From NCBI GenBank assembly GCA_009839425.1, contig VXPS01000262.1, positions 1-40,500 of the forward strand: a stretch of DNA of 40,500 bases. Direction: 5' to 3'. Each line of letters begins with the position of its first letter. Position 1 is the stretch's first letter. The translations under genes and the position numbers were made by a program. Shown here one piece after another: positions 6,566-28,454 of the stretch. The stretch comes from Chloroflexota bacterium. GTDB lineage: Bacteria; Chloroflexota; UBA11872. The notes below the pieces were generated by a model. The model searched no databases. It worked only from the letters and a program-made list of their open reading frames with translations, and was not told where the DNA came from.

Positions 6566-6652
6566 TTTCGCGGCAATTCACGTCTTGGTGCAAAAAAACG
6601 CCGTGAACAGGTTTTGAGACCATCTAGCAACCCAACATGGGGACATGAGGAC

Positions 6653-11539: not shown

Positions 11540-11614
11540 ATGCAATTGCCTTTGTTGCGGGAACACTGTATAACTATATGATTTTATGTGTATTATATAG
11601 AAGGAAGAGCAAAC
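11540..11614 (+). promoter_or_regulatory. AT-rich putative promoter and RBS region upstream of the ssp-like operon
   Basis: tgtataactatatgattttatgtgtattatatagaaggaagagcaaac precedes a GTG at 11615. aaggaag is a plausible Shine-Dalgarno sequence. Confidence 0.3.
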
Positions 11615-12805
11615 GTGACCCATCCGCGCGATAGGGCTGGAACCTTGGCCAGAAGATCCGGGTCACGCGTTCGTCAAGAACCGATCTTCCTTGATTTTCA
11701 GGCGACCACGCCACTGGATCCGGTTGTGCTCGAGGCGATGCTTCCCTGGATGAGCGGCGCGTGGAACGCCCACGCGATTGAACATGGCATGGGTCGCACA
11801 GCCAGCGCGGCAGTGGAGACGGCCAGGGAACAGGTTGCGGCGCTGCTCGGGTGTCGGTCATCCGAGATCACGTTTACTTCGGGCGCGACCGAGGCCTCGA
11901 ACATCGTCTTGCGTGGCGCCACAAGTGCTGGCGACGCAGTCGTGACGACAGAACTCGAGCACGCAAGCGTCTCGGAAACCGCCGATGACCTGGAGGCCAA
12001 TGGCAGATTCATCCATCGCGTCACGGCCAGCGAAGACGGAATCGTCGACGTCGCTGCACTTGCTGAAGCGTTGGACTCGCAGCCAGCGCTCGCGTCAATC
12101 ACCGCCGTCAACAGCGAAATCGGAACGGTCCAGCCGATCGACGACGTGGCCGCGATGTGCGCGGATCGCGACGTCCCGCTGCACAGCGACCTGACGCAGG
12201 CGGTGGGCAGGATTCCGGTGAAGCTCAGCGACTGGTTCGTGTCGTACGCCTCGATTTCCTCCCACAAGATCTACGGGCCCCAGGGGATCGGCGCACTCTT
12301 CGTTGCGGACGCCGCCGCCGCGCCCAGGCCCCTCGCGACGGGCGGAGGGCAGGAGAACGGGTTGAGACCCGGAACGCTTCCCGTTGCAAGCTGCATCGGC
12401 TTTGGTGCGGCGTGCGACCTGGCTCGGACGCGCCGGGAGCAGGATGATGCGCACGCCCAGACGCTCGCGCGCATGATGCTGAACGGGCTATCCGAACTCG
12501 AAGGATGGCAGTTGAACGGATCGCTGGAGACACGCATCCCGCACAATCTCAGTGTGGCCTTCGAAGGGGTGGATGCCGAGATGCTGCTGGCGTCGCTACC
12601 GGAGCTCGCGCTTGCAACAGGTTCAGCATGCAGCGCCGGATCGCTTCGAGGATCCGCGACGTTGCGCGCCATCAGCGTGCCGGAACCTCTGGCAAACGGC
12701 ACCATTCGGATCGGCTTCGGCCGGACCACTACCCCGGAAGAGGTCCGGACGGCCGCGAGCCTCTTGTGCGATCGTGTGCACTTGCTTCGAGGCGACGCGC
12801 CATGA
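11615..12805 (+). CDS. sspA: Class V aminotransferase-fold cysteine desulfurase (SspA/DndA/IscS-like)
   Basis: The ORF track starts at 11588; a GTG at 11615 has the better RBS. PLP-lysine motif SSHKIYGPQGIGALF, catalytic Cys loop ATGSACSAGS, N-terminal FLDFQATTPLDP. Stop overlaps the next start (ATGA). Confidence 0.82.
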   Translation: MTHPRDRAGTLARRSGSRVRQEPIFLDFQATTPLDPVVLEAMLPWMSGAWNAHAIEHGMGRTASAAVETAREQVAALLGCRSSEITFTSGATEASNIVLRGATSAGDAVVTTELEHASVSETADDLEANGRFIHRVTASEDGIVDVAALAEALDSQPALASITAVNSEIGTVQPIDDVAAMCADRDVPLHSDLTQAVGRIPVKLSDWFVSYASISSHKIYGPQGIGALFVADAAAAPRPLATGGGQENGLRPGTLPVASCIGFGAACDLARTRREQDDAHAQTLARMMLNGLSELEGWQLNGSLETRIPHNLSVAFEGVDAEMLLASLPELALATGSACSAGSLRGSATLRAISVPEPLANGTIRIGFGRTTTPEEVRTAASLLCDRVHLLRGDAP

Positions 12806-13734
12806 CGGCGACGGGTGGCCCTGACGCTCCGGAGGTCGGATGGCCGATTGTGCCCGGTCCGCGTGTCTTCTCCGGGCACGAGTCGTTCGCTTGCCGGTAC
12901 GGCTGGATCCCGAAACTGTACGAAGCTGTGATCGAGGATCCGGACCTGTTTGCGTCGGACGATCACGCGATCCTTCGGCTGGGACTCGGCCGCAACATGG
13001 TCAAGTCGCTCCGTTTCTGGGGAGAGGCGCTCCGGCTCACCCAGCGGAACGGGCGGGAGGTACACGTCACGGAGTTTGCCCGGATGCTGCTGGACCCGCG
13101 GGTCGGCCAGGACCCGTACCTTGAAACTCCGGGTGCGCTCTGGCGCCTCCACTGGACGCTGACCGTGCACGCCGGCCTGGGGGCATGGGCCGTGGTCTTC
13201 TTGGAAATGCAGGACCGTGAGATCACCAGAGAGCGACTGGTGACAGCCGTGCGCGGGTGCGCTGCGCGCGTGCGCGGAACGATTACTTCGGGCACGGCCG
13301 CCAACCATGTCAATGTGTTCCTCCAGACCTACGCGGCAAGCGAGCAGGCGGAAGGACCGCCAGAGGAGACGCTGGGCAGCCCTTTCCAGGAACTGGCGCT
13401 GGTGCGGCTGGCGGCGCCGGGCGGCGTGCCGACAGTGCGGCTCCCACGCGGCCCCAAGCGGTCGCTCGACGCGAGCGCGCTTGCCTTCATCCTGCACGAC
13501 TTCTGGCAGGGCAGCATGCCCGGGAGCGAAACCCTGTCCCTGCGGTCGCTCATGCTCGCGCGCGCTGCCCCCGGTGCAGTCCTGCTGCTGGATGAACCCG
13601 GCCTGCACGAGGCGCTCGATTCCGTCTGCTGCCGGTCGGGTAGGCTTACACTGCGGGGCGACGGAGCCGGCGGTCTGGACCTGACCTGCAAAGGTGAGCC
13701 ATTGCGCGAACTCTGGGAGATAGCTTGGTCATGA
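12802..13734 (+). CDS. sspB: DUF4007-like protein (SspB-like, putative nickase of Ssp phosphorothioation systems)
   Basis: In-frame ATG at 12802 within ORF 12505-13734. N-terminal VFSGHESFACRYGWIPKLYEAV matches the DUF4007 opening pattern as I recall it. ATGA coupling at both ends. Confidence 0.7.
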   Translation: MTATGGPDAPEVGWPIVPGPRVFSGHESFACRYGWIPKLYEAVIEDPDLFASDDHAILRLGLGRNMVKSLRFWGEALRLTQRNGREVHVTEFARMLLDPRVGQDPYLETPGALWRLHWTLTVHAGLGAWAVVFLEMQDREITRERLVTAVRGCAARVRGTITSGTAANHVNVFLQTYAASEQAEGPPEETLGSPFQELALVRLAAPGGVPTVRLPRGPKRSLDASALAFILHDFWQGSMPGSETLSLRSLMLARAAPGAVLLLDEPGLHEALDSVCCRSGRLTLRGDGAGGLDLTCKGEPLRELWEIAWS

Positions 13735-16700
13735 CCGGACCCACAGTCGCTACGCGGGTCACCGTTGGACGCCGCTACGTGCGGGCCGTCGAAATCACGC
13801 GCGACGTCGACGATCCGGATGCCCTCGACGGGTACGTCATCACGCCGTCAGTGCGCGATGCGGCCGTCCGCATTTGCGCTGGGCTGTCCCCCACCTCGAC
13901 ACAGCGTGCGTTCCGCGTTGTCGGCCCGTATGGCGCCGGAAAATCCGCGTTCGCCGTGTTCCTCGCTCAGCTCTGCCGGGAGCACGGAGAAGGACCGGCC
14001 ATGGAGCTTCTCGCGGCAGCGACCGGCGGCTCGGTGGCGATCGCGCCGTGGCGGCCGGCCGTTGTCAGCGGCCGGCGGATCAGCTTTGCACGCGAACTGC
14101 TGAGCGTCGTCGTCCGGGAATGCAGCGCTGGCACGACGGAAGTCGCAGAAGCCGCGGCACAGGCTGCTGCATTGCTGACGCGGGACGATCCACTTGATGT
14201 CCAGGAGGTTGTCGCGCTCCTTGAGTCCGCGGCTGCAGCCGTGCGGCAAACCTCCGGCGAGGGCCTGCTGCTGCTCGTTGACGAGATGGGCAGGTTCCTG
14301 GAGCACGCCGCGCTGGGTAACGAAGATCCGTCCATCTTTCAGGCGCTCGCCGAGCGGGCGGGCGGGCGCCCGGGAGCCGACCTCGCGGTCGTCGGCTTCC
14401 TCCATCACCGTTTTGCCGACTATGTGGCCGGACTGGGCAAGTGGATGGAGGCGGAATGGACACGATCGTCGGAGCGTTACGAGGAAGTGCCATTCAGCAG
14501 CTCTTCCGAACAGTCGCTCTTCATGCTGGCCCGTGCACTGACGCCGGTTCGGCGCCACACGCCTGCGGTGCGGAAACGGGCGGCCGAGCTCTATGGAGAA
14601 GCGGTGGACCGCGGCCTGTTTGCGGTGGCGCGCGAGGATGCCACTGATGTCTCGCAGACGCTGTACCCGCTGCACCCTGTGGCGGTTGCGACCCTCGTTT
14701 GGGCGATGCGGCGGTTCGGCCAGAACGAGCGATCACTGTTCAGCTTCCTGGGGTCCCTTGAACCCTCAGGTTTCCAGCGGTTCGCGCACGCCACCCGGTA
14801 CGACGCGGCGCACTGGTATCGGGCGCCGCACGCGTTCGACTACCTAGCGGCCATGATCAGCGGCTCCCCGGGGAGCGATCGTGGACGGCGATGGTCGCTG
14901 GCGTTTGACGCTGTGGCCCTTGCGGACGGCCTGCCGGGACGGCATCAGGACGTACTGAAGACCGTCGCGCTGGCGGCCGTCCTGGAACCAGTTCCCGGGT
15001 TGGTCGCCGACAACGATACGGTCGCCTGGTCCGTCGGAATGGATCCAGCGGAGACAGACCGGATTCTCGCAGATCTGGCGGAGCGCAAGCTGATCTATCG
15101 CCGATCGCACCGCCAGGACTATGCCCTCTGGTCAAGCTCCAGCGTCGATCTGTCGCAGTGGCTGGAGGATGCAAAGTTGCATGCCCGCATCCCGGAGCGC
15201 CTAGATGACGTCGAGTCCCTGTGGAAGCTCGCTCGGCCGGTGGTCGCCCACCGCCATTACCACGCCACCGGAACGCTCCGGACCTTTGAAGTTCGGCTTT
15301 GGGCAGGCGGGCAAGTCGCTGCACGCGAGGCCGACGGGCTGATCCTGATTGCACCGACCCACCCGGGCGAGGATATGGAGGCGGTGCTGCGCCAAGCGGC
15401 GGCTGCAGTTGCCGACGACCCGCTTGCACTGGTGTGCGCGCGTGCGATTCACCGGGACGACCTGGAATGGGCTCGTGAACTCACGCTGTGGCGCTGGATA
15501 CGCGAAAACTGCGACGAACTCAGGGTGGACGAACTGGCGCGAGCGGAGGTGTACGAACGCATTGCTGCGGCCGAGCGAGCGCTCACGCGGGTTGCCGCGC
15601 TCCTGTCGACGGTGAGCGACGAACGCGCGGAAGCATGGTGGCATGCAGGCAAGCCGGTCACCATGCCCAAGGGACTAAGCGCTTTCCTCAGCGACATCTG
15701 CGATCGCGTGTACGATGAGGCCCCGATCCTGAAGAACGAACTTATCAACCGTAGACGCCTCTCGGCGGCTGGCGCCAGCGCTCGAATGCGCCTGCTGGAC
15801 AGAATGCTCAGCAGTGCCAATCGCGATCAGCTGGGAATGGACAGCGCTCCACCCGAGCGCACGATCTTTCGATCCGTGTTCCTGACGTCCGGCATGCATA
15901 CGCCAACAAGCAATGGCATGTTCGCCTTCGCTCTACCCAGTCTGTCGGACCCGTGCCGCTGGAGACCGGTCTGGCAACGCATTGAGGAGCTGATCCACAC
16001 TGACGAGCCCATTGGTTTCGGCGTCCTCATGGACGAGTTGGGGCGGCCACCGTACGGCTTGCGCGCCGGACCGGCCCTGCTCGTGATCGTGGCAATCATC
16101 CTGGCGTCGAGACTTCATGTTGCGGTCATGGAGCGAAACAGCTTCGTGCCTGAACTGTCGGTGGCGCATCTGATGCGGCTCGCCAAGTCGCCAAACCGTT
16201 TTGCTGTCAAGTCCCTGCACGAGGGTGCCGCACGAAAGGGAGTTGTGCGGGCACTGGCCGCACGGCTGCAGGTTGCGGGAGCGCGTTCTGCAACACTGCA
16301 CGCACTTTCCGAGTGGCTCTTCACCTGGTACAACGCGCTACCCGTTTACGCGTTGCAGACCCGGACGATCTCCCCTGTCGCGCTCGCAGTCCGCACCGCG
16401 CTGCGCAAGGCATCGGAACCCGGACTTTTGTTCTTTCATGAACTGCCGGCAGCGTGCGCTGCACTGCGCGACCGCGGACGGATCGATATCGAACGCTATC
16501 TTGACGTGCTTGACGACGCGTTGCGCGAAATTGGTGACGCTGCGCCCAAGCTACGGATGCGAGCTGCTGCCGCTACCCAGGAAGCATTCGGCGCCGATGA
16601 TATCGCGACGCTCCGTTCCCGGTTCCAGGACGACTACCCACCGCACTGCCTGGAAAGACTGGATGATCGACTGCGGAACTTCGTGGAGCGAGCGATCGAT

Positions 16701-17093
16701 GCGCAAAGGACCGACGATGAATGGCTGGACCGGATCGCAGGCCATGTGTCCGGTCATCGGCCGGAGAGCTGGGACGACGACACGCTCAACCAGTTCGCAG
16801 TGGAAATCCGGGCCATGGCCGGCAATCTGGCGCGCTGGCTCGCCTTGGCCGGAACCCGGCCGGGGTGCGGAACGGATCTGCAAAGCGTCCACGTTGTCGG
16901 GCTCAACGGGCAGGAACGCGTCGTCGTTGTCCGCCGTGACCGGCCGAACCCGCAGCTGCACAGCCGGCTGAACGCGGTGCGGGAGGCTCTCGGTAACGAG
17001 CCCAACGCCGTGGAGGTGCTGGGGCACCTCCTCGCCGAATACACGGAAGGCCATGTCGGTTGGCAGGAGAGAAAAGCGGTCAGTTCGACATGA
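13731..17093 (+). CDS. sspC: Large P-loop ATPase (SspC-like / DUF499-BrxC-like)
   Basis: About 1120 aa. Walker A VVGPYGAGKSAFAV, Walker B-like LLLLVDEMGRF. ATG at 13731 overlaps the upstream TGA. Its own stop overlaps the next ATG. Confidence 0.68.
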   Translation: MTGPTVATRVTVGRRYVRAVEITRDVDDPDALDGYVITPSVRDAAVRICAGLSPTSTQRAFRVVGPYGAGKSAFAVFLAQLCREHGEGPAMELLAAATGGSVAIAPWRPAVVSGRRISFARELLSVVVRECSAGTTEVAEAAAQAAALLTRDDPLDVQEVVALLESAAAAVRQTSGEGLLLLVDEMGRFLEHAALGNEDPSIFQALAERAGGRPGADLAVVGFLHHRFADYVAGLGKWMEAEWTRSSERYEEVPFSSSSEQSLFMLARALTPVRRHTPAVRKRAAELYGEAVDRGLFAVAREDATDVSQTLYPLHPVAVATLVWAMRRFGQNERSLFSFLGSLEPSGFQRFAHATRYDAAHWYRAPHAFDYLAAMISGSPGSDRGRRWSLAFDAVALADGLPGRHQDVLKTVALAAVLEPVPGLVADNDTVAWSVGMDPAETDRILADLAERKLIYRRSHRQDYALWSSSSVDLSQWLEDAKLHARIPERLDDVESLWKLARPVVAHRHYHATGTLRTFEVRLWAGGQVAAREADGLILIAPTHPGEDMEAVLRQAAAAVADDPLALVCARAIHRDDLEWARELTLWRWIRENCDELRVDELARAEVYERIAAAERALTRVAALLSTVSDERAEAWWHAGKPVTMPKGLSAFLSDICDRVYDEAPILKNELINRRRLSAAGASARMRLLDRMLSSANRDQLGMDSAPPERTIFRSVFLTSGMHTPTSNGMFAFALPSLSDPCRWRPVWQRIEELIHTDEPIGFGVLMDELGRPPYGLRAGPALLVIVAIILASRLHVAVMERNSFVPELSVAHLMRLAKSPNRFAVKSLHEGAARKGVVRALAARLQVAGARSATLHALSEWLFTWYNALPVYALQTRTISPVALAVRTALRKASEPGLLFFHELPAACAALRDRGRIDIERYLDVLDDALREIGDAAPKLRMRAAAATQEAFGADDIATLRSRFQDDYPPHCLERLDDRLRNFVERAIDAQRTDDEWLDRIAGHVSGHRPESWDDDTLNQFAVEIRAMAGNLARWLALAGTRPGCGTDLQSVHVVGLNGQERVVVVRRDRPNPQLHSRLNAVREALGNEPNAVEVLGHLLAEYTEGHVGWQERKAVSST

Positions 17094-17890
17094 GGCACAT
17101 TCTCAGCCTCTCCGGCGGCAAGGATTCGGCGGCACTCGCCATCTACATGCGCGATCGCGTGCCCGAGATGGAGTACGTCTTCTCCGATACCCGCAAGGAG
17201 CTCCCGGAAACGTACGCGTACCTGGAGCGGATCGAGGACTATCTGGGAAGGCGGGTAAACCGGCTCAACGCCGAGCTGGGCTTCGACCACTGGTACGAGG
17301 TCTACGGCGGGATGATTCCCTCAAACCACCGCCGATGGTGCACCAAAATGCTCAAGCTCAAGCCGTTCGAGCAATTCGTAGGTGACGATCCCGTACGCAA
17401 CTACGTCGGGTTGCGCGCCGACGAGAACCGTTCTGGCTACATCAGCCACAAGCCAAACATTACGCCGGTCTATCCATTCCAGCAGGACGGGCTGAAGCTC
17501 GAGGACATCGAGGAAATCCTGCAATCTTCGGGAATCGGGATGCCGCCCTACACGGCATGGGGCCGGTCCCGGTCGGGATGCTACTTCTGCTTTTACCAGC
17601 AGAAAATCGAATGGGTTCGCTTGAAGGAGCAGCACCCGGAGCTCTTCGAGGCAGCAAAGGCCTACGAACGGCCGTTTGCGGGCAGCGGCAACACGTTCAC
17701 CTGGAGCCAGCAGGAATCGCTGACGGAGCTGGAACGGCCAGAGCGTGTGCAAGCAATCAAGGACGAGCACACCCGCCGCCAGGCCGCAAGGAAGGCCAGT
17801 GGCGCGGACCTGACGCTCGCCGAGGTCTACCGACGCCGCGCCGCACAGGACGACGCGGATGATGACGCCTGCCTGATCTGTCACCTGTAA
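17090..17890 (+). CDS. sspD: PAPS reductase/ATP pyrophosphatase-fold protein (SspD-like)
   Basis: PP-loop SLSGGKDSAA near the N-terminus. C-terminal CYFCFYQQ and DDACLICHL Cys motifs. ATG at 17090 in ORF 17060-17890. Confidence 0.8.
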   Translation: MRHILSLSGGKDSAALAIYMRDRVPEMEYVFSDTRKELPETYAYLERIEDYLGRRVNRLNAELGFDHWYEVYGGMIPSNHRRWCTKMLKLKPFEQFVGDDPVRNYVGLRADENRSGYISHKPNITPVYPFQQDGLKLEDIEEILQSSGIGMPPYTAWGRSRSGCYFCFYQQKIEWVRLKEQHPELFEAAKAYERPFAGSGNTFTWSQQESLTELERPERVQAIKDEHTRRQAARKASGADLTLAEVYRRRAAQDDADDDACLICHL

Positions 17891-17900
17891 GGGCGCCACG

Positions 17901-20252
17901 ATGAGCTTCAAGTTTGCGGCCCGCACGATCCTGGAGCTTGGCAAGGAACTGATCAGCTCCGACGAGGTGGCGCTCTACGAGTTGATCAAGAACGCGGTCG
18001 ACGCCGGGTCGCCACGCATCGAAATTGCCGTGCACAACCTGCTGGGTGGATCCCGATACCGTGAAGCAGTCGAGCGCCTCACGGAAGAAGGCCAGAGCCG
18101 GTCCGAGGTTCTGAAGTTCGTCCGCGCGGGACTGGTCGATTCGGACAGACCGGTTTCCGAGGAACTCCTGGCCAGTCTCAAGAAATGTTCGGGCAACAGG
18201 AGTTTCCTGCAAACGCTCCGGTCATTCCATGACGACGTGAACTACATCGAGATCCGGGATACCGGACATGGAATGAGTCTGGACGAGTTGAAGGACGTCT
18301 TTCTCCGGATCGGGACGTACTCCCGCCGGAACGAAAATCTGAAGGGCGCGCAACACCTGGGAGACAAGGGCATCGGGCGTCTTTCGGCAATGCGGCTGGG
18401 CGATCGTTTACGGGTCACCACCACGAAGCGCGGCGAGCAATACTGGAACCTGCTGGACATCGACTGGGCACTGTTCGCGGGCGATGAGGATGTCGATGCA
18501 GACTCCATCAGCCTTGAACCCGAACTTGGGGACGAGAAGATCGACCGCGACAAGCAGGGAACGGTCGTCCGCATTTCGGCGCTGCGGGGCGATTGGGACA
18601 AAGAGCGGTTTACGGACATGCTGCAGGGCAAGGTTGCCCGGATGGTCGATCCGTTCATCCGTGGTAACGCCAACCGTCTGATCGTTGCCAGGCACAATGG
18701 TACGCGAGTGCAAGTGCCGTCCATTCGAGCAACGCTGCTCCGAGCCGCGCATGCCGTCTGCCATGTGGAGTTTCGCATGGAGGATGACACGCCGGTCATC
18801 GAAGGCGAGATCAACTACCGGCTTCGGCATCGGAAGCGGCGGATCGATGCCCAAGGCCCCGAGCTCTACTCACTCACGCAGGAAGCGGTCAAGCGGCGGG
18901 CAAAACGGGGACACGCCGCGTTCAGATTGATCCCGATACGGCCAGCTGCCCTGAAACGCTTGGATCATTTCAAGTGCGACATTTACTGGTTCAACCGCAA
19001 TGCGTTAGTGGGCGTCGAGGGCCTCAGCGAGGGACGGGACGAAACCCGGAAGCAGATCTCATACTGGAGCGGTGGCCCGATGCTCTATCGGTACGGGTAC
19101 CGCATCCTGCCCTACGGGGATCTTGATGATGACTGGCTGGGACTGGACGAAGCAGCTTTCGGGGCCAGCGGGTTCAAGCTCAATCGTCAGCAGGTGATCG
19201 GGCGGGTGCGCATCGACACACCCCACAGCGCATTGAGTGAGAAGACCGACCGCGAGGGCCTGATCGACTCCGACACATTCAACGCGCTGCAGAAGATCCT
19301 GATTTGGATCGTGCATACGGAAATGCGCGGGTTGATCAACCTGGCTGACAAACTGGAACAGGACAAGGGACGTGAGGCCGATCTGGACACGCAGACCGTC
19401 GCGAAAATGCGTGCCCGAGTCGAAGCGGCACTTCAGCGCCTGTGTGAACAGGTTGGTGATTCGTCTGCCGCCGAAATCAAGTCCCTCTCACGCAGCGTAG
19501 AGAGCCTTGCGAAGCACTCCCAGGATCTCGTCGAACGGATCGACGGCGTCATCAAAGAGGCTGATCAAGAGCGTGAAAAATACGTCTACCTTGCGGGCAT
19601 CGGCCTGATGACCGAGTTCATCTTCCATGAACTCGAGAGGGCAGTTTCCCATGCAATGGAGGCCGTGTCCGGCCGCACACTAAGACAGTCGACGATCGAA
19701 TCCCTGCGCGAACAGCTGAAGACGCTGCACAAGCGAATCGCTGCGTTCGATGAGCTCACGACCGAGAAACGGCAAAGGAAGTCGACTGTTGACCTCGCCG
19801 AAGTTGTCGACCTCACCCTGGAGAATCACATTCGCAAATTCGAGCGACACGGAATCGTCGCAAGTGTCGAACCGCCAGACCGTTCCTTCAAGGTGAAGGC
19901 TGTGCGCGGAATGGTCATCCAGATCCTTGAGAACCTCATCGTCAATGCGGCCTATTGGCTCAAGGAGCAGAGACAGTTCGAAACCGACTTTAGGCCGACA
20001 TTGAAAGTGAGCCTCGATGCCGATGCCAAGACGGTGACGGTGGAGGACAATGGCCCGGGAGTGATCGTCGACCGGCGCGAGCATATCTTTCAGCCCTTTA
20101 TTTCATTGAAGCCGTCTGGGCTCGGTCGAGGTCTCGGGCTGTACATCTCCCGTGAGATGGCCGAATATCACGGTTGGAAGCTTCGCATGACCGAGGACGT
20201 CGGCCGTGTGCGTGACGGGCGATTGAACGCGTTTGTGCTTGATATGGGGTAA
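17901..20252 (+). CDS. Dual GHKL protein: N-terminal Hsp90/MORC-type ATPase module plus C-terminal histidine-kinase core (H-box + HATPase_c)
   Basis: N-terminal module: YELIKNAVDAG (N-box), IRDTGHGMS (G1), GDKGIGRLSAMRLG (G2). C-terminal module: FIFHELERAV (H-box-like), ILENLIVNAAYW (N), VEDNGPGV (G1), IFQPF (F), GLGRGLGLYISRE (G2). Starts 10 nt after sspD. Confidence 0.8.
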   Translation: MSFKFAARTILELGKELISSDEVALYELIKNAVDAGSPRIEIAVHNLLGGSRYREAVERLTEEGQSRSEVLKFVRAGLVDSDRPVSEELLASLKKCSGNRSFLQTLRSFHDDVNYIEIRDTGHGMSLDELKDVFLRIGTYSRRNENLKGAQHLGDKGIGRLSAMRLGDRLRVTTTKRGEQYWNLLDIDWALFAGDEDVDADSISLEPELGDEKIDRDKQGTVVRISALRGDWDKERFTDMLQGKVARMVDPFIRGNANRLIVARHNGTRVQVPSIRATLLRAAHAVCHVEFRMEDDTPVIEGEINYRLRHRKRRIDAQGPELYSLTQEAVKRRAKRGHAAFRLIPIRPAALKRLDHFKCDIYWFNRNALVGVEGLSEGRDETRKQISYWSGGPMLYRYGYRILPYGDLDDDWLGLDEAAFGASGFKLNRQQVIGRVRIDTPHSALSEKTDREGLIDSDTFNALQKILIWIVHTEMRGLINLADKLEQDKGREADLDTQTVAKMRARVEAALQRLCEQVGDSSAAEIKSLSRSVESLAKHSQDLVERIDGVIKEADQEREKYVYLAGIGLMTEFIFHELERAVSHAMEAVSGRTLRQSTIESLREQLKTLHKRIAAFDELTTEKRQRKSTVDLAEVVDLTLENHIRKFERHGIVASVEPPDRSFKVKAVRGMVIQILENLIVNAAYWLKEQRQFETDFRPTLKVSLDADAKTVTVEDNGPGVIVDRREHIFQPFISLKPSGLGRGLGLYISREMAEYHGWKLRMTEDVGRVRDGRLNAFVLDMG

Positions 20253-20254
20253 CG

Positions 20255-22201
20255 ATGGACCACGCCAAGCGTATCATTCAGGCATTCAAGTCGAACGAGA
20301 TCCAGAGAATTCTGCTGGTCGATGACGCGTATGATCCCCCGGATCTCGATGAAGATGTCACGGCGCCGGTGGCCGATTTTCTGTTAACGGAGGAGGGTCT
20401 AGCAGCCTGCGAAGACTGCGGAATCGAACCAGATACACGTGAGCGAGCAGCCAGTGCCGCGGAGGCAGGGGATCCCACCAACCCGGCACTTGTGGAAATG
20501 TATCATGCCCTCTACGCAAGGTTTACCGAAACCGGCGAGGAGCGGTTTGATCCTGGTGAACGGTTTCGCCTTATCAAGGAAGGCGCGCTGAAGGATCTTC
20601 ACCCGCTACGCGCTTTCCTGGGACAGTGCGGTGACGGTATACAAGTGCGGACGGTTGGCCTGGACAACGCCCCGGCCTGCTTCGGAGAGTTTCGACCGCA
20701 AGTCTTGTTTCTTGACTACTACCTGAGCGACGATGTTCCCCCCACGGGCGACGTGAGCGAAGGCAAGAAGGAACAGGCAAGGAAAGCATCGCTCGATCTG
20801 CTGCGACAGTTGGTGGAAACCAAAGACATCGATGGCATTCCGGCGATCGTGCTCATGTCCTCCCGGGAAATAGCTGACGTCAACAGTTACCGGCACGATC
20901 TGGGAGAGCCGCACGTCCTCGCCCTCCGGTTTCACTTCCTGCAAAAGCGATCGATCCTGTACAAGGATGGCAAACTCGTCCCGGAGCTGGATGCCGTCAA
21001 TGCGCTTCTGAATACAAGTCAGGGCTACCTGTTCCGCCAGCAGGTTCAGCACGCGCTCGCACAATGGAAAAATGGTGCGGAAGATGCGCTTCGCGCATTC
21101 ATGGAAAATGTCAGCGATCTGGAAACGAAAGATTTTGCCTACCTCCTGCGTTTCCGGCTTCGCGAGGACGGACAGACGCTGGGCGACTATTTGGACTGGT
21201 TTTTTGGTGAATGCCTGAAAGGCTTCGTCGAGGAGAAGGTCGACTGGCAACACAGTTCGTTCGCGTCCCTCAATGCAGACGGGCGCCCTGAGCAGGGAAT
21301 CGAAGGTGCCTTCGAAGGACCATCCCCCACTATCGCAAGGTTGTTTCACCGCGTGCGGGTGACAAGCCGTCGGGGACACCCGGGGATGGATTATCGACTG
21401 GGCGATCTATTTGCCGAGCGCAGGACGAACCGCATTTGCACAGTGATCACGCCAGATTGCGACCTCGTACAACGAAACGGCCCACCGAAAGCCGAAAGCG
21501 TCCTCACCATGAGGGGCACCGTCAAGTCGTTCGATGATGAGAACAGTTCCGCTGACGACTTCCTGCTCCTGAAGGACGGGCTCTGCAGTGTTCGGTGGGA
21601 TCCGAAAGACCTGCAGACCTTTCCCTACAGCGGGCGGGGGGCGCTGGCCACCCACTACAGGTTCAAGTTTCTCGGTACTTTGCGTCCACTCTATGCGCAA
21701 GAGATTCAGCGACGGGCGCTGACGGATCTTGCCCGTGTTGGCCTGCCGGTCGCTCCGGCATTTGGAATCAACACTCCCGCCAGCGTCTGGGTGCGGGAGG
21801 CGGGACGACACTTCACCGAGATACACCTGTCGAGTCAGGCAATTGCAACCATGGTTCCGCCTCGGACAGGAGAACACCAGGTTGCCAAGTTCGTGCTCCG
21901 GCGCAGGTTTCTTGATGAAATGATCACCAAATTGAGCCAGATAGCACCGGATTCCATGTCCAGCGGAGATCATGGCTCGCTCCGCGCGCTTCAAACGGAA
22001 GATGCACTTGAGAAGCTGTATGCCACGTTTCTGATCGACGGCGGCCGGATTGGCGACAACTGTTACGGGATCGGGCTCACCATGGGAACAGAGCCCCGCC
22101 AAGGAAAAAAGGCAAATTGGCTGCAGATTGTCCTCGGAACCCCCGCCGACGTGATGGAAACAATCGTTACCTTCGATCCCATCACGAATGCATCCGGTTA
22201 G
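20255..22201 (+). CDS. Receiver (REC)-like N-terminal domain protein with a large uncharacterised C-terminal domain
   Basis: RILLVDDAYD (acidic pocket), VLFLDYYLSDD (candidate phospho-Asp), AIVLMSS and FLQKR in REC-like order, with an insertion of about 110 aa after strand 1. The C-terminal 400 aa have no motif I recognise. Start is 2 nt after the upstream stop. Confidence 0.65.
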   Translation: MDHAKRIIQAFKSNEIQRILLVDDAYDPPDLDEDVTAPVADFLLTEEGLAACEDCGIEPDTRERAASAAEAGDPTNPALVEMYHALYARFTETGEERFDPGERFRLIKEGALKDLHPLRAFLGQCGDGIQVRTVGLDNAPACFGEFRPQVLFLDYYLSDDVPPTGDVSEGKKEQARKASLDLLRQLVETKDIDGIPAIVLMSSREIADVNSYRHDLGEPHVLALRFHFLQKRSILYKDGKLVPELDAVNALLNTSQGYLFRQQVQHALAQWKNGAEDALRAFMENVSDLETKDFAYLLRFRLREDGQTLGDYLDWFFGECLKGFVEEKVDWQHSSFASLNADGRPEQGIEGAFEGPSPTIARLFHRVRVTSRRGHPGMDYRLGDLFAERRTNRICTVITPDCDLVQRNGPPKAESVLTMRGTVKSFDDENSSADDFLLLKDGLCSVRWDPKDLQTFPYSGRGALATHYRFKFLGTLRPLYAQEIQRRALTDLARVGLPVAPAFGINTPASVWVREAGRHFTEIHLSSQAIATMVPPRTGEHQVAKFVLRRRFLDEMITKLSQIAPDSMSSGDHGSLRALQTEDALEKLYATFLIDGGRIGDNCYGIGLTMGTEPRQGKKANWLQIVLGTPADVMETIVTFDPITNASG

Positions 22202-22637
22202 CAGCCCGTAAGCCCGGCTACCGGTTCTGCGACCCCGAGATGGCTCGACGCGAGAAGCCCTTCGCATCCAGGTGTTCGCGCTGATCGATCACACCCGGAC
22301 CGCGCCAGGAAACAGCCTTGCCGCTGGCCAGCGGGCCTGCCAGAGGACGCTGTACAGCGCCTCGATCGACGGGGTCGGCCCGCACGCCGCGACCACGTCC
22401 CCACCTGTCCCAGCACGCCTTGAGGGTCGCCGCTTCTTTCGAGACGCGCAGCCAAGGCCCGCAGCCCTGCCCGTCTTGCGGTATCCAACGCTTCCTTCGA
22501 GATCCCGTGTATGTCGGCCGCTTCCGCTGCATGAACCAGCGCGGCCGCCTGCTCCGCATACCAGAGGCGGCGCGCTGCCTCCGAGCTCGGATCGGATCGC
22601 CCGAGCACCAAAGGCGGGCCGGCGAGGTCGCGGCCGC

Positions 22638-23318
22638 GAACGAGCCGTTGAACGACTCGATGAAGGCGTTGTCGGTGGGCTTGCCCGGCCTTGAGAAGTC
22701 GAGTGTCACGCCGTTGAGCCAGGCCCACAGATCAAGCGCCTTGCTGATGAACTCGGGCCCGTTGTCGAGGCGGATCGTCTTCGGTGTGCCGTAGACGCGA
22801 GTGACCCGCTCCAGTGTCTCGACCACGTCCGTGCCGCGGTAGTGCGGCCGCACGTCGATCGCCGGCGAGAGCCGGCTGTAGGCATCGACGATGGTGAGGA
22901 TGCGGATCCTGCGCCCGTTGAACAGCTGGTCCGAGAGGAAGTCCATCGCCCACACCTGGTTCGGCGCTGCGGGCGGAGAGCGGTCCCCGCGAAGCTTCGC
23001 CGCGACCCGGCGCTTGGGCGTCTTATGGCGCAGTTGCAGGCCTTCCTCGGTGTAGAGCCGGTAGATCCGCTTCACGTTCACCTGCCAGCCTTCGCGTCGC
23101 AGGAGCACGTGGATCCGGCGATACCCGTAGCGTACCCGGGTCTCGGCGATCTCGCGGATGCGCTGGCTCAGGACCGCCTGCGATGGCCGGCGGGCGGCGT
23201 AGTGGTAGCTCGACCGGCCGGCTCCCAGCACCGCGCATACGCGCCGGATGCTCACCTGCCAGACCTCCCGAGTCTCGTCGACCAGCTCCCGCCGCCGCGC
23301 CGGCCCTAGAGCTTTTTT
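22638..23318 (-). pseudogene. IS3-family transposase OrfB (rve/DDE), C-terminal part missing or scrambled
   Basis: WAMDF, TIVDAYSR, LDNGPEF and KPTDNAFIESFNG motifs are present. After FNGSF, none of the three frames shows the expected ECLN...WF...RPH tail. Confidence 0.7.
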
Positions 23319-23623
23319 CGCACCACCTCCTGGAGCATCTCCTTGTCGAGACTCAGGTCCGCCACCAGCCGCTTCAGGCGCTGGTTCTCCTCCTCGAGCT
23401 GCTTGAGACGCTTCATCTCGGAGGGCATCAGCCCGCCGTACTTCTTGCGCCATCGGTAATACGTCTGCGCGGAGATCCCCGCCTTCCGGCAGACCTCCTC
23501 GACCCGCGTCCCTTCCTCCGCCTGGCGCAGGATGAACGCAATCTGCTGCTCGCTGAACTTCGACCGTTTCATGGCCTCTTCCCCACTGGGTCCATGAAAA
23601 CCTATCCGAGAATTCTCTCGCAA
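23306..23623 (-). CDS. IS3-family transposase OrfA (HTH + leucine zipper)
   Basis: MKRSKFSEQQIAFILRQAEEGTRVEEVCRKAGISAQTYYRWRKKYGGLMPSEMKRLKQLEEENQRLKRLVADLSLDKEMLQ is a textbook IS3/IS407 OrfA. Confidence 0.88.
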   Translation of the reverse strand: MRENSRIGFHGPSGEEAMKRSKFSEQQIAFILRQAEEGTRVEEVCRKAGISAQTYYRWRKKYGGLMPSEMKRLKQLEEENQRLKRLVADLSLDKEMLQEVVRKKL

Positions 23624-23653: not shown

Positions 23654-24290
23654 GCGCGGGCGCGAGCCTACGCGCACTCGACTTGTTCTCGGGCTGCGGC
23701 GGATTGTCGCTCGGGTTTCATGCCGCCGGCTTTGACATCGCGGCCGCGATGGACGTCGACCCGGTGGCAGCGGCATCCCACGGCACCAACTTTCATCCCG
23801 GCTTCCCGAAGCATGCTCAGGGCCGGGACTTGACCGTGATCACGCCCTGTCGCCTTGCGCGCGAATTGGATGTGGGTGACGTCGCGGGGGCTTTCGAAGT
23901 GGTCGTTGGGGACCCGCCTTGCCAGGCGTTCGCACGTGTCGGCAGATCGAAGCTGCGGGCGGTCGATGCCGATCCGGACGCGTTCCGGGCCGACCCGCGG
24001 GCCAGACTGAACGCCCCCTACCTGAGGTACGTGGAGTCGTGTCTTCCTCTGACCGTTCTGATAGAAAACGTACCGGACGTCATGAATTTCAGGGGACGAA
24101 ACGTTGCGGAGCAGATCTGCGCCGCATTGGAGAGCCTCGGCTATGTCTGCGCCTATACGCTGCTCAATGCGGCGTTCTAGGGTGGCTGCCCGCAGCGACC
24201 ATGTCCGGCTGTCCGGGCATTCGAAGCGCACCGTACAAGAATAGAACACCGGGCGCGCCGCGCGCATGCCCGGGCTGACCAATTTGCAAC
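23654..24290 (+). pseudogene. DNA (cytosine-5) methyltransferase remnant, 5' end cut by the IS and interrupted by an in-frame stop
   Basis: Motif I LDLFSGCGGLSLGF begins 10 codons after the IS terminus with no start codon. Motif IV GDPPCQAF and ENV motif LIENVPD are present. TAG at 24178 sits where LNAA(D/F)YGVPQ is expected (reads LNAAF*GGCPQR), and the frame then degrades. Confidence 0.78.
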
Positions 24291-24519: not shown

Positions 24520-27288
24520 TTGCCAATGCCGTCAAACGACGAGAATTTCTCCCGCGTCCACGAACCGGACGCAGCCGCCCAAGTCCCTTTCTCCTACGAC
24601 CTTGCGGAACCGGTTGAGGCCGCCGACGCCGAGGACCTGAGGATCGGCCTCTGGCCCTGGTCCGTACTCAGGGACCGGCTGGTCAACGTCACCGACGAAG
24701 GCCTGGACTGGATCCGCGACAGCATCCGCCAGCTGGGCCGGCACGTCCGTGGACACGGCTCGAACGTCCGCTCGCGATTCTGGTCCGAAAAGAACCGGAT
24801 GATCGTGCCGTGCGAATCCCGCACGGTCGAGCGCCCGCTGTTCACGAGCATGGAGATCGACCGCGCGGTCGCCTGGTATCTGGCGCAGCTCCAGCCGCTG
24901 GACCTGACGGGTGTCGATGCGCGGGGCCGGACCCTGCCGATCACCAAGACCTTCGACGCGCTGGTCGGGCTCGTGAGCGGCGAGGTGTTCGTCGCCGAGT
25001 TCAGGAGCGAGGAACAGCTCCGGGCGCAGCTCCGGGACCAGCCGCACCTCTACCGGCAGGAAGGGGACGTCGTGCGGTACACGCCGTACGGGGAGATGGC
25101 GGAGCGCTTCGGGATCCCCGACCGGGTCCTGACCCCCGCGAACCTCCCGAAGATGGCCATCACCAACTGGGAGCTGCTCAAGGGGTATTCCCGGCGCCGC
25201 GTGAGTGAGGCCGACTTCCAACGCGTGCGGGAGGCCGTGCGCGACCGCCCCGCAACCGTGGTCGAGGTCGCTCAACAGGCGGAGGTCCCGGTGGACGTCG
25301 TGCTGGCGGCGATCGCCCGCGGCGTGGTCTTCGTGGACGTCAACCGGCAGCTCGTGGTGGAGACGGAGACCACGCTGGTCCACGCGTCGTTCGCGACGTT
25401 CGTGGCCTACACCGACGCTCCTCGCGGGGCCGCTACGGGCGTCCGGGTCATCGCCGGCCTGCGGGACGGCACGGTGGCCAGCTGGGACAGCGACCCGGTG
25501 GAGCTCGTGCACGTCGGCCAGACCAGGGTCGTGGTGCGCTGGGAGGGCAGCGGGCGCATCGTCGAGGTGCCCATCGCGGACTTCGAACGTTTCGTGCAGG
25601 ACGGCACGGTGGGGCTGCCCACGACGGATCTGTCCGCCGACCCCGTCGCCGAGGCCCTGGCGCGCTCCAATCAGCGCGAGCGCGACGTCGCGACCGATCG
25701 CGCCAGTGTGATCCGGCTGGTCCTCGACGGCCAGCTGTCGAAGGAACAGGCTGCCGAAGCGCTGGGCGTGAAGTCCCCCCGGACGATCGAGCGCCACATG
25801 CGCGATTACCGCCAGTTGGGCTGGGCCGGGTGCGTCCCGAACTGGCGAGCCCGCGGCAACCGCAAGCGGCGGATCTCCGTCGGGCGGCTGGTGGGGATGG
25901 ATGCGGCCATCGCCACCTACTACGTGGGCAAGAACGGCTTCGCCAAGCCGAAACGCACGATGGAAGCGGCCTACAAGATGTACCGGGAAAATTCCCCCGA
26001 CCCCGTGTCCCTGGCGACGTTCAAGCGCCGGATCCGCGAGCTTGCGGGCCTCGAGCAGACACGCCACCGGGACGGCGACCGGGCCGCGAACCGGTTCCGG
26101 ACGGCGCGGGGCCGCGACCCGTTCGTGGACCTGTACCCGCTGCACGTCATCCAGGTCGATGCCACGCTCGGCGACATCTTCCTCACGCTGCTCGAGTCGG
26201 TGCTCGGCCATGACGCGTTTCTGGTGCGTCCGCAGGTCTCGATCGCCGTCGATGTCTTTTCACAGTGTGTGGTCGGCCTCTACGTGTCCCTCGGGGGCGA
26301 GTCCGCGGCCACGGCGCTGATGCTCCTGCGGGACGTGGTCCGCCGCCACGGGCGGATGGCCGACATCGTCCTGATGGACAACGGCGCCGGCTACCGCTCC
26401 AAGGACGTGCAGAACTTCGTCGTCGGGATCTGCGGCCGGGAGCTGCAGCACCGGGCGCCGCACCGCCCGCAGATCGGCGGGATCTGCGAGCGACTGTTCG
26501 AGACCATGCGGGCCGAGCTCTTGGTGTCCATGGCCGGCCAGACGTCGCGCCTCAAGGCGGTGCGCGAGGTCACGAAGTCAATGGATCCGCGGCGCGACGC
26601 CGCGTGGACCCTGGCGGCGTTCACCGGGATCCTCGAGCACTTCTTCTTCGAGATCTACAACCGGCGCGTGCACCCGGGCGTGGACATGGCGCCCCTCGAG
26701 AAGCTGGAGCAGGGCTACCTCCTCCGGGGGTACCGCGAGCAGCAGCGGGTGGCGTTCGATGCGAACCTGCTCGCCGCCACCTCGCCGTCGTGCGGAACGC
26801 GGCAGATCGACCCGAAACTGGGTGTCTGGGTCGACTACCGGCGGTTCCGGAATGCCGAGGTCTCGAAGCGGTTCCACGGCCGCGACGACCGCACCGTCGA
26901 GGTCAGGCGGGAACCCGACGATTGCACGCTGGTGCGGGTCCTGGCGGACCGCCAGTGGGAGGAGTTCACGAGCGACGACCGCCCTCTGCTGCAGTCGTAC
27001 AGCGCCGCCGACCAAGTCGCGATCAGCAAGGCGTACCGGGCCGTGAAGGCCAGCGTGCGCCGCGAGCGGGGCCGGAAAGGCTTTGGCCTCGGTGCCTTCC
27101 TCACGCGCATCCACGAGGCGCAGGAAGCCGTCCTGAAGGAACGACGGTCGGCCGAGCGGCGGCGGGCGTCCGATGCCGGGTCCGGGCGCACCGTCCGCCG
27201 TCCGGACAAGGCCCGGAAAGGGGCCGGCACGGGCCTGTCGCTGGATTTCCTCGACCGCGATGCGAAGCACTTCGGGGAGGACGGCTGA
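24520..27288 (+). CDS. tniA: TniA/TnsB-type DDE transposase (Mu/rve superfamily), unusually long
   Basis: 922 aa. DDE context HVIQVDATLGDIF, IVLMDNGAGYRS, IGGICERLFETM. N-terminal and central HTH-like segments. Followed by TniB-like and TniQ-like genes with overlapping stops and starts. Confidence 0.82.
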   Translation: MPMPSNDENFSRVHEPDAAAQVPFSYDLAEPVEAADAEDLRIGLWPWSVLRDRLVNVTDEGLDWIRDSIRQLGRHVRGHGSNVRSRFWSEKNRMIVPCESRTVERPLFTSMEIDRAVAWYLAQLQPLDLTGVDARGRTLPITKTFDALVGLVSGEVFVAEFRSEEQLRAQLRDQPHLYRQEGDVVRYTPYGEMAERFGIPDRVLTPANLPKMAITNWELLKGYSRRRVSEADFQRVREAVRDRPATVVEVAQQAEVPVDVVLAAIARGVVFVDVNRQLVVETETTLVHASFATFVAYTDAPRGAATGVRVIAGLRDGTVASWDSDPVELVHVGQTRVVVRWEGSGRIVEVPIADFERFVQDGTVGLPTTDLSADPVAEALARSNQRERDVATDRASVIRLVLDGQLSKEQAAEALGVKSPRTIERHMRDYRQLGWAGCVPNWRARGNRKRRISVGRLVGMDAAIATYYVGKNGFAKPKRTMEAAYKMYRENSPDPVSLATFKRRIRELAGLEQTRHRDGDRAANRFRTARGRDPFVDLYPLHVIQVDATLGDIFLTLLESVLGHDAFLVRPQVSIAVDVFSQCVVGLYVSLGGESAATALMLLRDVVRRHGRMADIVLMDNGAGYRSKDVQNFVVGICGRELQHRAPHRPQIGGICERLFETMRAELLVSMAGQTSRLKAVREVTKSMDPRRDAAWTLAAFTGILEHFFFEIYNRRVHPGVDMAPLEKLEQGYLLRGYREQQRVAFDANLLAATSPSCGTRQIDPKLGVWVDYRRFRNAEVSKRFHGRDDRTVEVRREPDDCTLVRVLADRQWEEFTSDDRPLLQSYSAADQVAISKAYRAVKASVRRERGRKGFGLGAFLTRIHEAQEAVLKERRSAERRRASDAGSGRTVRRPDKARKGAGTGLSLDFLDRDAKHFGEDG

Positions 27289-28454
27289 TGCCCGGGCCGG
27301 TGCCGGCCGGGCGGGACCGCCCGCTCGAGAGAATTATCGCGGCGATGCGCAAGACCGTCGTGTCGCACCCCGCCCACGATGCCGCGTGCACGACGCTCCG
27401 GAAATTCCTGTCGGCGCGCGAGGGCGCCGTCTGCCTCGTGACGGGGCCGAAAGACGCGGGCCGGAGCACGGTGGCCCGGGCCGTCTTCGGCCCGCGCAAA
27501 GATGCGCTGGTCGTGCGCACGCCGGCGGGTCCGCTGGCCGGCCGGGGGTTCCGCGCCACGCGGCTCCTGGAGGCCATCCTGCGGACCGGCAAGGCGCCGA
27601 TGGTCGATGGCCTGGTGGCTCATCAGCTGCCCCTGATGACCCGGGACGGGCGCGTGCTCGTGATCATGCCGGACCCGTCCCGCCAGGGGGGCCGGGACGC
27701 GGCGGAGGCGACCCTCGTGGGTGCGATCAGCCAGATGAGGAAATACCGCGGCGTCCGGTTCCTGGTGCTCGATGACGCGGATCCCCTGGTCGGGCTGTCG
27801 AGCGTGGAGCACGTCGACTGGATCCTCCGGGTGGCGCGCGAGGTCGGGCTGCGCCTGGTCCTGGTGACGTCCAACCACACGGCCGCCACGGTGCTGGAGA
27901 AGCTCGCGCACGCGGTCGAGTGGCACCTGGTCGAGGTGCAGCGGTACACGTCCCGGTCGGGTCCCGGCGCGTTCACCGGGTTCCGCGACGCCCTGGAGGA
28001 GCTGCTGGAAGCGGTTCCCGAGGTCCGTTTCCCGCCGCTCGGGAGCACCGAGTTCTACTACGTGTCCTGCTATTCCCTCGGCTGTTTCGGCCGCGCCTGC
28101 CAGTACCTTGAGACGCTGGTGGCGAGGGCGCTCGCCAAGCAGGGCGCCGCGCGGGGCATCCTCACGGTCGAGGACATGCGCCTGGACGGGGCCGCGGAGG
28201 AGCGCCTGCATGTGCTGCTGAGCGCCATCGAAGAGGGCGAGGAGCGGCTGCGCAACATCTTGTCGGCGGGGCGGGACGGCCGGCCCCTGCACCAACGGCT
28301 GGGTCTGGCCGTGCCGTCCGAATCGAAGTCGGCATCGGAGGACGAACTCGAACCCGGGCCGGCGCCGAAGGGCAATGGCATCCACCGGCCGCGGGTGGGC
28401 GACCCGGCCCTGGACCGGATCGGCGAGGCCCAGATCGCGGAACTCGGGTTTTGA
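27288..28454 (+). CDS. tniB: TniB/TnsC-like AAA+ regulator with deviant Walker A
   Basis: ATG at 27288 shares its first base (A) with the last base of the tniA TGA. Deviant Walker A region CLVTGPKDAGRSTVARAV, Walker B RFLVLDDAD. Position between tniA and tniQ. Confidence 0.68.
   Translation: MPGPVPAGRDRPLERIIAAMRKTVVSHPAHDAACTTLRKFLSAREGAVCLVTGPKDAGRSTVARAVFGPRKDALVVRTPAGPLAGRGFRATRLLEAILRTGKAPMVDGLVAHQLPLMTRDGRVLVIMPDPSRQGGRDAAEATLVGAISQMRKYRGVRFLVLDDADPLVGLSSVEHVDWILRVAREVGLRLVLVTSNHTAATVLEKLAHAVEWHLVEVQRYTSRSGPGAFTGFRDALEELLEAVPEVRFPPLGSTEFYYVSCYSLGCFGRACQYLETLVARALAKQGAARGILTVEDMRLDGAAEERLHVLLSAIEEGEERLRNILSAGRDGRPLHQRLGLAVPSESKSASEDELEPGPAPKGNGIHRPRVGDPALDRIGEAQIAELGF

Follow-up and report, generated by a model that had tools for sequence, protein, structure and literature searches.

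What do a histidine kinase and a receiver-like protein do at the end of an operon for DNA phosphorothioation? The question is raised by a stretch of 40,500 nucleotides (nt) from a Chloroflexota bacterium (assembly GCA_009839425.1, contig VXPS01000262.1, positions 1 to 40,500 of the forward strand), which was analyzed at its full length and is called the window here. Positions 20255..22201 of its plus strand hold an open reading frame (ORF) for a protein of 648 amino acids (aa), which the original prediction had read as a receiver (REC)-like domain with a large insertion, fused to about 400 aa of unknown function, and had considered as a possible effector with a new activity. The kinase and the REC-like protein are a fixed companion of Ssp systems across phyla. 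The analysis has also led to the proposal that the REC-like protein is the output subunit, gated by phosphorylation, of a new module that partners Ssp, with an inferred role as a restriction or abortive effector; this proposal is tentative, being about as apt to be wrong as right and perhaps a little more so.

The REC-like gene is the last of a six-gene operon, sspA-sspB-sspC-sspD-kinase-REC, that contains a complete SspABCD phosphorothioation module, because the ssp genes lie upstream on the same (plus) strand and the gaps are very short, 10 nt from sspD to the kinase gene and 2 nt from the stop of the 783-aa kinase ORF to the ATG of the REC-like gene. The gene sspA (11588..12805) encodes a cysteine desulfurase (Pfam Aminotran_5, E = 2.4e-65; PADLOC SspA, E = 1.3e-113), sspB (12505..13734) a DUF4007 protein (Pfam DUF4007, E = 2.4e-56; PADLOC SspB, E = 1.6e-70), sspC (13725..17093) a BrxC-like ATPase (PADLOC SspC, E = 4.8e-238), and sspD (17060..17890) a PAPS-reductase-like protein (PADLOC SspD, E = 3.7e-116; Pfam PAPS_reduct). 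The sspB ORF, as called mechanically, begins 300 nt within sspA, and its homology to SspB/DUF4007 starts at its residue 122; consequently, the true start probably lies near 12868. The GC content along the operon runs from 64% (sspA), 67% (sspB), 65% (sspC), and 61% (sspD) to 59% for the kinase gene and 57% for the REC-like gene, with flanks of up to 70-75%, a gradient that fits a mosaic, horizontally acquired island. A scan for promoters and terminators gave nothing exceeding background. The exact sequence of 17901-22201 was found in sponge-metagenome DNA runs only, plus a partial match in one other run, and no RNA runs containing the kinase/REC sequence were found.

The ORF at 20255-22201 is a real gene, and relatives of its product are numerous. 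A search of 5.8 billion proteins returned 201 homologs (90% clustering), mostly of 640-670 aa, all of them either unnamed or labeled "hypothetical" and lacking any precomputed Pfam domain. A profile search of 1.84 billion cluster representatives (50% clustering) returned a superfamily of 860 representatives at E <= 1e-3, including 197 at E <= 1e-30. Scans of the protein and 68 relatives with Pfam, NCBIfam, and PADLOC gave no matches. The viral contigs searched contained no relatives of the family, a result that is neutral for the proposed role. A full-length AlphaFold2 model built on 58 homologs (mean predicted local distance difference test [pLDDT], 84.6; predicted template modeling score, 0.80) divides the protein into four parts: a (beta-alpha)5 receiver, an all-helical segment (258-368), a beta-rich segment ending in a long helix (384-493), and a mixed tail (505-637). 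In the 58 homologs, which are 37-54% identical, the invariant residues are D23, D24, D27, D154, S202, and K231 in the first part and, farther on, P400, C402, D403, L404, W448, K451, and the block from G474 to G504. Among 40 superfamily members (~20% identity), D23, D24, D27, D154, P196, S202, G383, C402, G421, W448, and G496 are still invariant, and K231, D384, D403, L404, R494, and P501 are at least 90% conserved. Even the relatives from Acinetobacter baumannii and Polaromonas (14-16% identity) keep D23, D24, D154, P196, K231, G383, C402-D403-L404, and R494; position 202 changes from Ser to Thr in the A. baumannii protein.

Residues 1-256 (20255..21022) are concluded to form a receiver that is very divergent but catalytically complete, rather than a pseudo-receiver, from the invariant residues, the topology of the model, and Foldseek. 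The modeled strands comprise residues 18-22, 130-134, 150-154, 197-202, and 226-230, with helices between them and a pLDDT of about 90. Strands 1, 3, 4, and 5 end, respectively, at the acidic pair D23/D24 (20321-20326, within RILLVDDAYD), the predicted phospho-acceptor D154 (20714-20716, within VLFLDYYL), S202 (20858-20860, within AIVLMSS), and K231 (20945-20947, within FHFLQK). Thus, the landmarks LLVDD, FLDYYL, LMSS, and FLQK, which had been noticed in the right order in the letters alone, fall where a receiver would have them, and the flavodoxin-like fold expected of the N-terminus is the one modeled. The large acidic and helical insertion that had been placed after the first strand is also seen: residues ~30-125 (20342..20629) carry 22 acidic and 9 basic residues, are modeled as helices (33-123), and replace receiver helix alpha-1. 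In the aligned superfamily and in the A. baumannii and Polaromonas relatives, the insert is of similar length and variable sequence.

The divergence of this domain is evident from the searches. With the full-length model, Foldseek retrieved the receivers of Spo0A, MtrA, and NarL and of a phage response regulator (PDB and viral models), with probabilities of 0.91-0.99 and no E-value below 0.01; for Spo0A, MtrA, and NarL, the probabilities were 0.96-0.99 and the E-values 0.03 or higher. Once the insert was removed, hhalign against five classical receivers gave probabilities of 45-52% and an E-value of about 2e-4, in a register that equates D23/D24 with CheY D12/D13, D154 with D57, the serine of LMSS with T87, and K231 with K109. 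F228, three residues ahead of K231, stands at the position of the CheY Y106 switch residue. The Pfam Response_reg model matched neither the REC-like protein (none at E <= 1) nor its 58 relatives (none at E <= 10), and an hhalign comparison with CheY alone was without result.

The partner protein (783 aa, 17901..20252, plus strand) had been called kinase-like. On sequence grounds, it is a genuine, soluble HisKA-type histidine kinase that has a GHKL ATPase where the sensor would be (Pfam HATPase_c_3, E = 2.6e-18; HATPase_c, E = 6e-21). Its N-terminus (residues ~20-225) is a HATPase_c_3 domain of the GHKL/paraMORC type in which E27, N31, D34, D120-x-G-x-G, and G154-x-K-G-x-G-R are invariant; positions 72-197 match Hsp90-type N-domains among PDB sequences. 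This GHKL part also resembles BbrUII/HgiDII-type restriction enzymes (NCBIfam, E = 1.5e-14; PADLOC REase_II, E = 4.6e-7). The DHp dyad H576-E577 (19626-19631) is invariant, as are the N, G1, and G2 boxes of the catalytic domain (N678/N682, DNGPG at 716-720, and GxGLGL at 742-747), and positions 527-790 match solved histidine kinases with an E-value of 2.6e-26 at best. A homologous GHKL-histidine kinase of 843 aa (22% identity), with the His-Glu dyad kept, is encoded on plasmid pl193 of Bacillus sp. SH8-8 (L008:6992-12366). Downstream of it are encoded a receiver-like protein of 215 aa, which matches cREC_REC and Response_reg weakly, an HNH endonuclease, and an N6 DNA methylase. In this arrangement, the same kind of kinase is coupled to a restriction-type effector, here as part of a classical restriction-modification pair.

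Evidence that the two genes belong to Ssp systems comes from other genomes. A scan of one genome per species (GTDB), with the kinase located by tblastn, yielded 36 loci from Latescibacterota, Thermodesulfobacteriota, Spirochaetia, Planctomycetales, Acidobacteriota, and Alpha- and Gammaproteobacteria. The kinase gene lies directly upstream of the REC-like gene in 35 of the 35 loci that hold the latter; the 36th (L044) is a fragment. When two loci on short contigs are set aside, 33 informative loci are left, every one of which has ssp genes at a distance of no more than 10 kb: sspB/C/D in 26, and in the remaining 7, sspFGH in the flank (6 loci, with a PADLOC E-value of 0 for SspG/H) or sspA plus an sspD remnant (1 locus). 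No locus with the pair and without ssp genes was found among those examined, and in many loci, the pair is the sole other conserved component beside the ssp genes. Three metagenome homologs (48%, 42%, and 37% identity) have an identical gene order. Relatives at about 25% identity or less are found on plasmids of Ensifer, Methylorubrum, Rhizorhabdus wittichii RW1 (Swit_5323/5324), and Polaromonas, and all adjoin ssp genes, in tandem, divergent, or convergent order; such variation argues for functional rather than accidental linkage. In A. baumannii VB1190 (CP040048.1, L046:11992-21333), a 779-aa kinase and a 637-aa REC-like protein are encoded convergently with sspD-C-B. These are only 27% (kinase) and ~16% (REC-like) identical to the window pair, and the REC-like protein matches the superfamily profile at a probability of 96.8% (E = 2.4e-10), the CDL motif included. 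CP040048.1 is labeled a plasmid but has nuo and nrd genes and is thus probably chromosomal. Finally, the identities of the REC-like protein and kinase do not follow that of SspC: alongside pairs of 34%/51% identity, for instance, SspC is either 44% or 30% identical, as would fit modules exchanged between Ssp lineages.

Several features of individual loci may be recorded here. In several loci, a separate XRE-type regulator lies beside sspA. At L012:7418-7570, a 50-residue sspD remnant alone separates sspA from the kinase gene. At L022:3419-11206, a REC-like match beginning only at residue 251 lies about 4.2 kb from the kinase gene, so that the REC-like gene looks interrupted. Some loci have an optional third gene of 805 aa (L002:12038-14455, plus strand; L005:2715-5132, minus strand; L038:12048-14156; partial at the ends of L019, L023, and L025). 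The copies of this gene are 66-72% identical to one another, including in loci whose REC-like proteins share only about 25% identity, and one copy has a weak HATPase_c_3 (GHKL) match (E = 0.022). Most loci lack the third gene, as does the window, in which the REC gene is followed by an IS3 element.

These distributions bear on the idea that the pair is an autonomous abortive-infection system that shares defense islands with Ssp and makes no use of phosphorothioate (PT) marks. A soluble kinase paired with a REC-effector fusion resembles Detocs, an anti-phage two-component system in which the effector fused to the receiver is best known as an ATP nucleosidase of the PNP type. The window is itself a defense/mobile island (a RES toxin gene, a PDC-S31-like gene, an IS3 element, and Tn7-like genes), and the pair has a lower GC content (57-59%) than sspA-C (64-67%). 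However, the constant presence of ssp genes, usually in the same operon with gaps of ~10 nt, and the failure to find a pair on its own are not what would be expected of an independent system, nor is there a third receiver gene or a PADLOC match. An autonomous system of the Detocs type is regarded as improbable.

The C-terminal output region had originally been treated as one domain of about 400 aa that resembled nothing recognizable. The second part of this description has stood, in that no known family, housekeeping families included, was matched in Pfam, NCBIfam, PADLOC, or PDB sequences; a profile search of all PDB sequences with the REC-like protein returned just a chance match to Notch ankyrin repeats (E = 0.24). 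The first part has not: the models divide the region into a conserved helical linker domain (residues 257-370, 21023..21364), all-helical in both models; a putative MazF/CcdB-like beta-barrel (residues ~380-495, 21392..21739); and an alpha/beta tail (residues ~500-648, 21752..22198) with low column conservation and models of moderate confidence. The linker contains KDFAYLLRFRL (292-302) and YLxWxFGE, which are among the best-conserved stretches of the protein, and the barrel contains G383-D384, the conserved motif Cys402-Asp403-Leu404 (21458-21466), W448, and R494. Neither the linker nor the tail had structural or sequence matches by Foldseek or the PDB-sequence profile. The stretch ICTVITPDCDLVQ had been singled out as the only conserved-looking block, which went too far, as KDFAYLLRFRL, W448, and GTLRPLYAQExQ...R494-x-G496 are equally conserved. 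Since column conservation is highest at 241-320, 381-420, 441-460, and 481-500, TPDCDL is conspicuous rather than unique.

The barrel assignment comes from Foldseek on two independent models. Residues 256-648 modeled alone reached a pLDDT of 85.7, and a comparison of this model with the PDB gave the MazF/CcdB fold as its sole coherent result, with MazF of Escherichia coli, Mycobacterium tuberculosis (MazF-mt9), and Deinococcus radiodurans, together with CcdB, ranked highest (probability up to 1.00, target-normalised TM 0.53-0.58, about 120 columns, root mean square deviation about 5 Å, E about 0.01). The full-length model retrieved this fold too, and BFVD yielded it in the form of a phage PemK-like protein. 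The Pfam models PemK_toxin and CcdB matched neither the protein nor its 58 relatives. Judging from the models, then, the barrel resembles MazF and CcdB in fold and, by sequence criteria, lies outside that family. Two other readings of the region were rejected. A PD-(D/E)xK nuclease reading of PD401...D403...K451 fails on two counts, since neither D401 nor K451 is conserved across the superfamily and the domain folds as a barrel, and a CX4R phosphatase-like reading of C402...R407 fails because R407 is unconserved beyond the close family.

Taken together, these features have led to a model for the pair. In this model, the GHKL domain of the kinase would read the state of the DNA, such as whether PT marks are present or absent, how dense they are, or whether foreign DNA has invaded. 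The kinase would then autophosphorylate at H576, and the phosphoryl group would pass to D154, with the helical insert in place of alpha-1 serving as a private docking surface of the pair. Phosphorylation, relayed via the helical linker, would free or activate the C-terminal output, the core of which would be the MazF/CcdB-fold barrel with its invariant Cys402-Asp403 pair and near-invariant Arg494. This output might hit nucleic acid or an essential target and so stop phage replication, and the pair would take the role that SspE or SspFGH plays in the two characterized Ssp systems. The proposal of an effector draws on the findings that sspABCD alone only modifies DNA and that 83.9% of sspBCD loci have neither SspE nor SspFGH (PMC8092258), on the frequent position of the pair as the sole other conserved component, and on the HNH endonuclease encoded downstream of the Bacillus pl193 kinase. 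The superfamily-wide conservation of the output region and its toxin-type fold are also counted in its favor. A modification-linked defense with a two-component switch, which sharpens the original prediction, is thus a serious possibility that we hold with nearly as much belief as doubt. Its most specific form, in which Ssp would have in the pair a third restriction partner with a new mechanism, a GHKL kinase that reads the PT state and switches on a MazF/CcdB-fold effector of a kind not described before, with a Cys-Asp-Arg site, is possible but is offered with distinctly more reserve.

It should be noted that a number of observations weigh against such an effector. Foldseek E-values for the output region are never below 0.01, and no enzymatic motif was recognized in it. 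Profile comparisons by hhalign with E. coli MazF, and with five MazF/PemK sequences, gave probabilities of 0.8-1.4%, which are not significant. In the best of these alignments, the barrel is co-linear across the whole MazF chain, with GD on GD and a strand plus Pro on RPxxVxS-P, but the 9-residue beta1-beta2 loop that holds the MazF catalytic Arg (R29 equivalent) is deleted. The position ahead of the second barrel strand varies in the family (R, D, S, or G), and the barrel's own conserved polar residues (D384, C402, D403, and R494) differ from those of MazF. Furthermore, no small gene that might encode an antitoxin was seen between or beside the kinase and REC-like genes in any locus examined. 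Membership in the MazF family was rejected because the hhalign comparison was not significant, and the fold resemblance alone was retained.

About 300 conserved residues between the GHKL and DHp parts of the kinase have no domain assignment and may carry the real effector activity, which is likewise a point against the model. It has been considered on this account that the effector lies elsewhere, in the middle region of the kinase or in the optional 805-aa GHKL-like gene, and that the REC-like protein is a phosphate sink or scaffold. The likeness of the kinase GHKL part to restriction enzymes and the conservation of the third gene in some loci would suit this arrangement. The 390-aa output region, however, is at least as conserved as the receiver and is retained in every relative examined, and the third gene is missing from most loci, the window included. 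An effector outside the REC-like protein is regarded as improbable.

The last point against the effector model is that the pair can stand beside a complete restriction module. It is found with sspFGH in seven genome loci (six within the 33 informative loci, and one also with sspBCD) and on the Polaromonas plasmid. The order sspF-G-H-kinase-REC is seen in L016:15-7549, L017, L011:24-6101, L041, L034, L032, and L039, and in L047:107-8957 (Polaromonas pPNAP02). Since Polaromonas and L039 carry sspBCD as well, both modules are possible within one Ssp island. Consequently, the pair is not simply an alternative restriction module and could instead be a regulator, one that senses the state of the DNA or its PT marks and tunes how active or how strongly expressed the Ssp modification machinery or SspFGH is, or that couples PT status to other processes, with the C-terminus as an adaptor that would bind protein or DNA and be neither catalytic nor toxic. 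In favor of this reading, PT modification is partial and tightly controlled (PMC8092258), "a role in epigenetics" has been raised for the A. baumannii Ssp region (PMC12421847), and the output has no recognizable catalytic motif and no MazF catalytic loop. On the other hand, Pfam scans of the protein and 58 relatives revealed no helix-turn-helix or other DNA-binding output, the XRE-type protein beside sspA in several loci is already a separate regulator, and most loci have no other candidate effector. In addition, the superfamily-wide Cys-Asp motif and Arg494 are more suggestive of an active site or a ligand site than of an interface. A regulatory pair is, on balance, rather unlikely, and the phosphorylation-gated output subunit is the reading carried forward here.

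The remainder of the window contains further mobile and defense-related genes. The IS3-family element starts 17 nt past the REC stop, with transposase ORFs at 22218-23453 and 23306-23623 on the minus strand. Beyond it lies a truncated C5 cytosine methylase ORF (23683-24180), in which no more than positions 1 to 145 of the 324 in the Pfam profile are represented, and next come Tn7/Tn5053-like genes: a TnsB-like gene (24520-27288), a gene for an AAA_22 protein that extends to 28454, and a TniQ gene (28451-29347). Upstream of the operon, 6614-8068 (plus strand) encodes a protein of 484 aa in which DUF2971 is combined with a RAMA domain at the C-terminus; it matches PDC-S31, a candidate defense family of PADLOC (E = 7.9e-42), and PDC-S14. 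A RES-domain toxin gene lies at 1662-2357 (minus strand; Pfam, E = 1.7e-33), next to an ORF (544-1422, minus strand) that has no Pfam match. At the other end, 33225-40131 holds genes for two proteins with RTX repeats, in which 17 and 14 repeat stretches were matched; downstream of these are genes for an ABC transporter of type I secretion and for an HlyD-family protein.

If the proposal is correct, it would bear on a large group of loci. About 84% of sspBCD loci are without a known restriction partner (PMC8092258), and the pair is a strong candidate for a large share of them. A 2025 survey found Ssp in 61.9% of A. baumannii genomes, almost always without SspE, and listed a histidine-kinase two-component system, left unanalyzed, among the global-clone-2 signature genes of that region (PMC12421847). 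Many "orphan" sspBCD loci, including the Ssp region of most A. baumannii global-clone-2 genomes, would be explained. The system would be the first DNA-backbone-modification system wired to two-component phosphotransfer, and it would add a new output domain to the repertoire of receiver effectors, from a superfamily of 860 representatives for which there is no Pfam model and no functional annotation. In searches of the literature on Ssp and histidine kinases, no paper describing the function of the pair was found, and its one mention is a passing remark on A. baumannii.

How does the pair compare with known systems? Like SspE and SspFGH, it lies directly beside sspBCD, and it can co-occur with SspFGH, as SspE does. 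Unlike SspE, a PT-stimulated NTPase/nickase, and SspFGH, a complex with Walker-A and FtsK-like components, it is predicted to be a His-Asp phosphotransfer pair. Neither the kinase nor the REC-like protein matches the PADLOC models for SspE, SspF, SspG, or SspH (the SspF/G/H models match other loci with an E-value of 0); identity of the pair with SspFGH was rejected on this basis and on that of the published description (PMC8092258). Two broad comparative papers on PT and BREX systems make no mention of such a partner for Ssp, with a kinase and a receiver.

The resemblance to Detocs lies in a histidine-kinase-like sensor and a receiver fused to an output domain, both in defense. The differences are several: the present system has two genes rather than a trio, with no small gene for a buffer receiver protein; its sensor is a GHKL ATPase rather than a TPR protein; it has no PNP, TIR, or other known effector domain; and it is obligately linked to a DNA-modification module. 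It was not matched by PADLOC, in a release whose Detocs content was not checked. With MazF/PemK/Kid and CcdB, the barrel shares a co-linear strand order, a C-terminal helix, and Gly-Asp at the first strand. It differs from them in being embedded in a 648-aa protein, in the lack of an antitoxin gene, and in the deletion of the catalytic-Arg loop, and its invariant Cys-Asp-Leu and Arg are absent from MazF.

The closest parallel is found in the two-component-like pairs of HEF_HK (PF19191) and Response_reg_2 (PF19192) proteins, which have been predicted computationally near C5 methylases and restriction-modification genes (Bellieny-Rabelo et al. 2021, PMC8011034). As in those pairs, the kinase is soluble, with an N-terminal HATPase_c_3 domain, a His-Glu DHp, and a C-terminal HATPase_c domain; the product of the neighboring gene is a divergent receiver that has loop extensions and in which no further known domain is present; and the pair adjoins DNA-modification genes. 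Unlike those pairs, it is linked to SspABCD phosphorothioation, not to C5 or N6 methylation. The C5 methylase remnant beyond the IS3 element is not conserved in other loci, in which the neighbors are sspABCD and/or sspFGH, and the part of PMC8011034 available here makes no mention of Ssp or Dnd genes. PF19192 matched neither the REC-like protein nor its 58 close, 10 distant, plasmid, or A. baumannii relatives. PF19191 did not match the window kinase and gave sub-threshold matches to the kinases of A. baumannii (E = 0.0023) and Polaromonas (E = 0.2). The present family is thus probably a sister group of HEF_HK/Response_reg_2, tied to phosphorothioation rather than to methylation.

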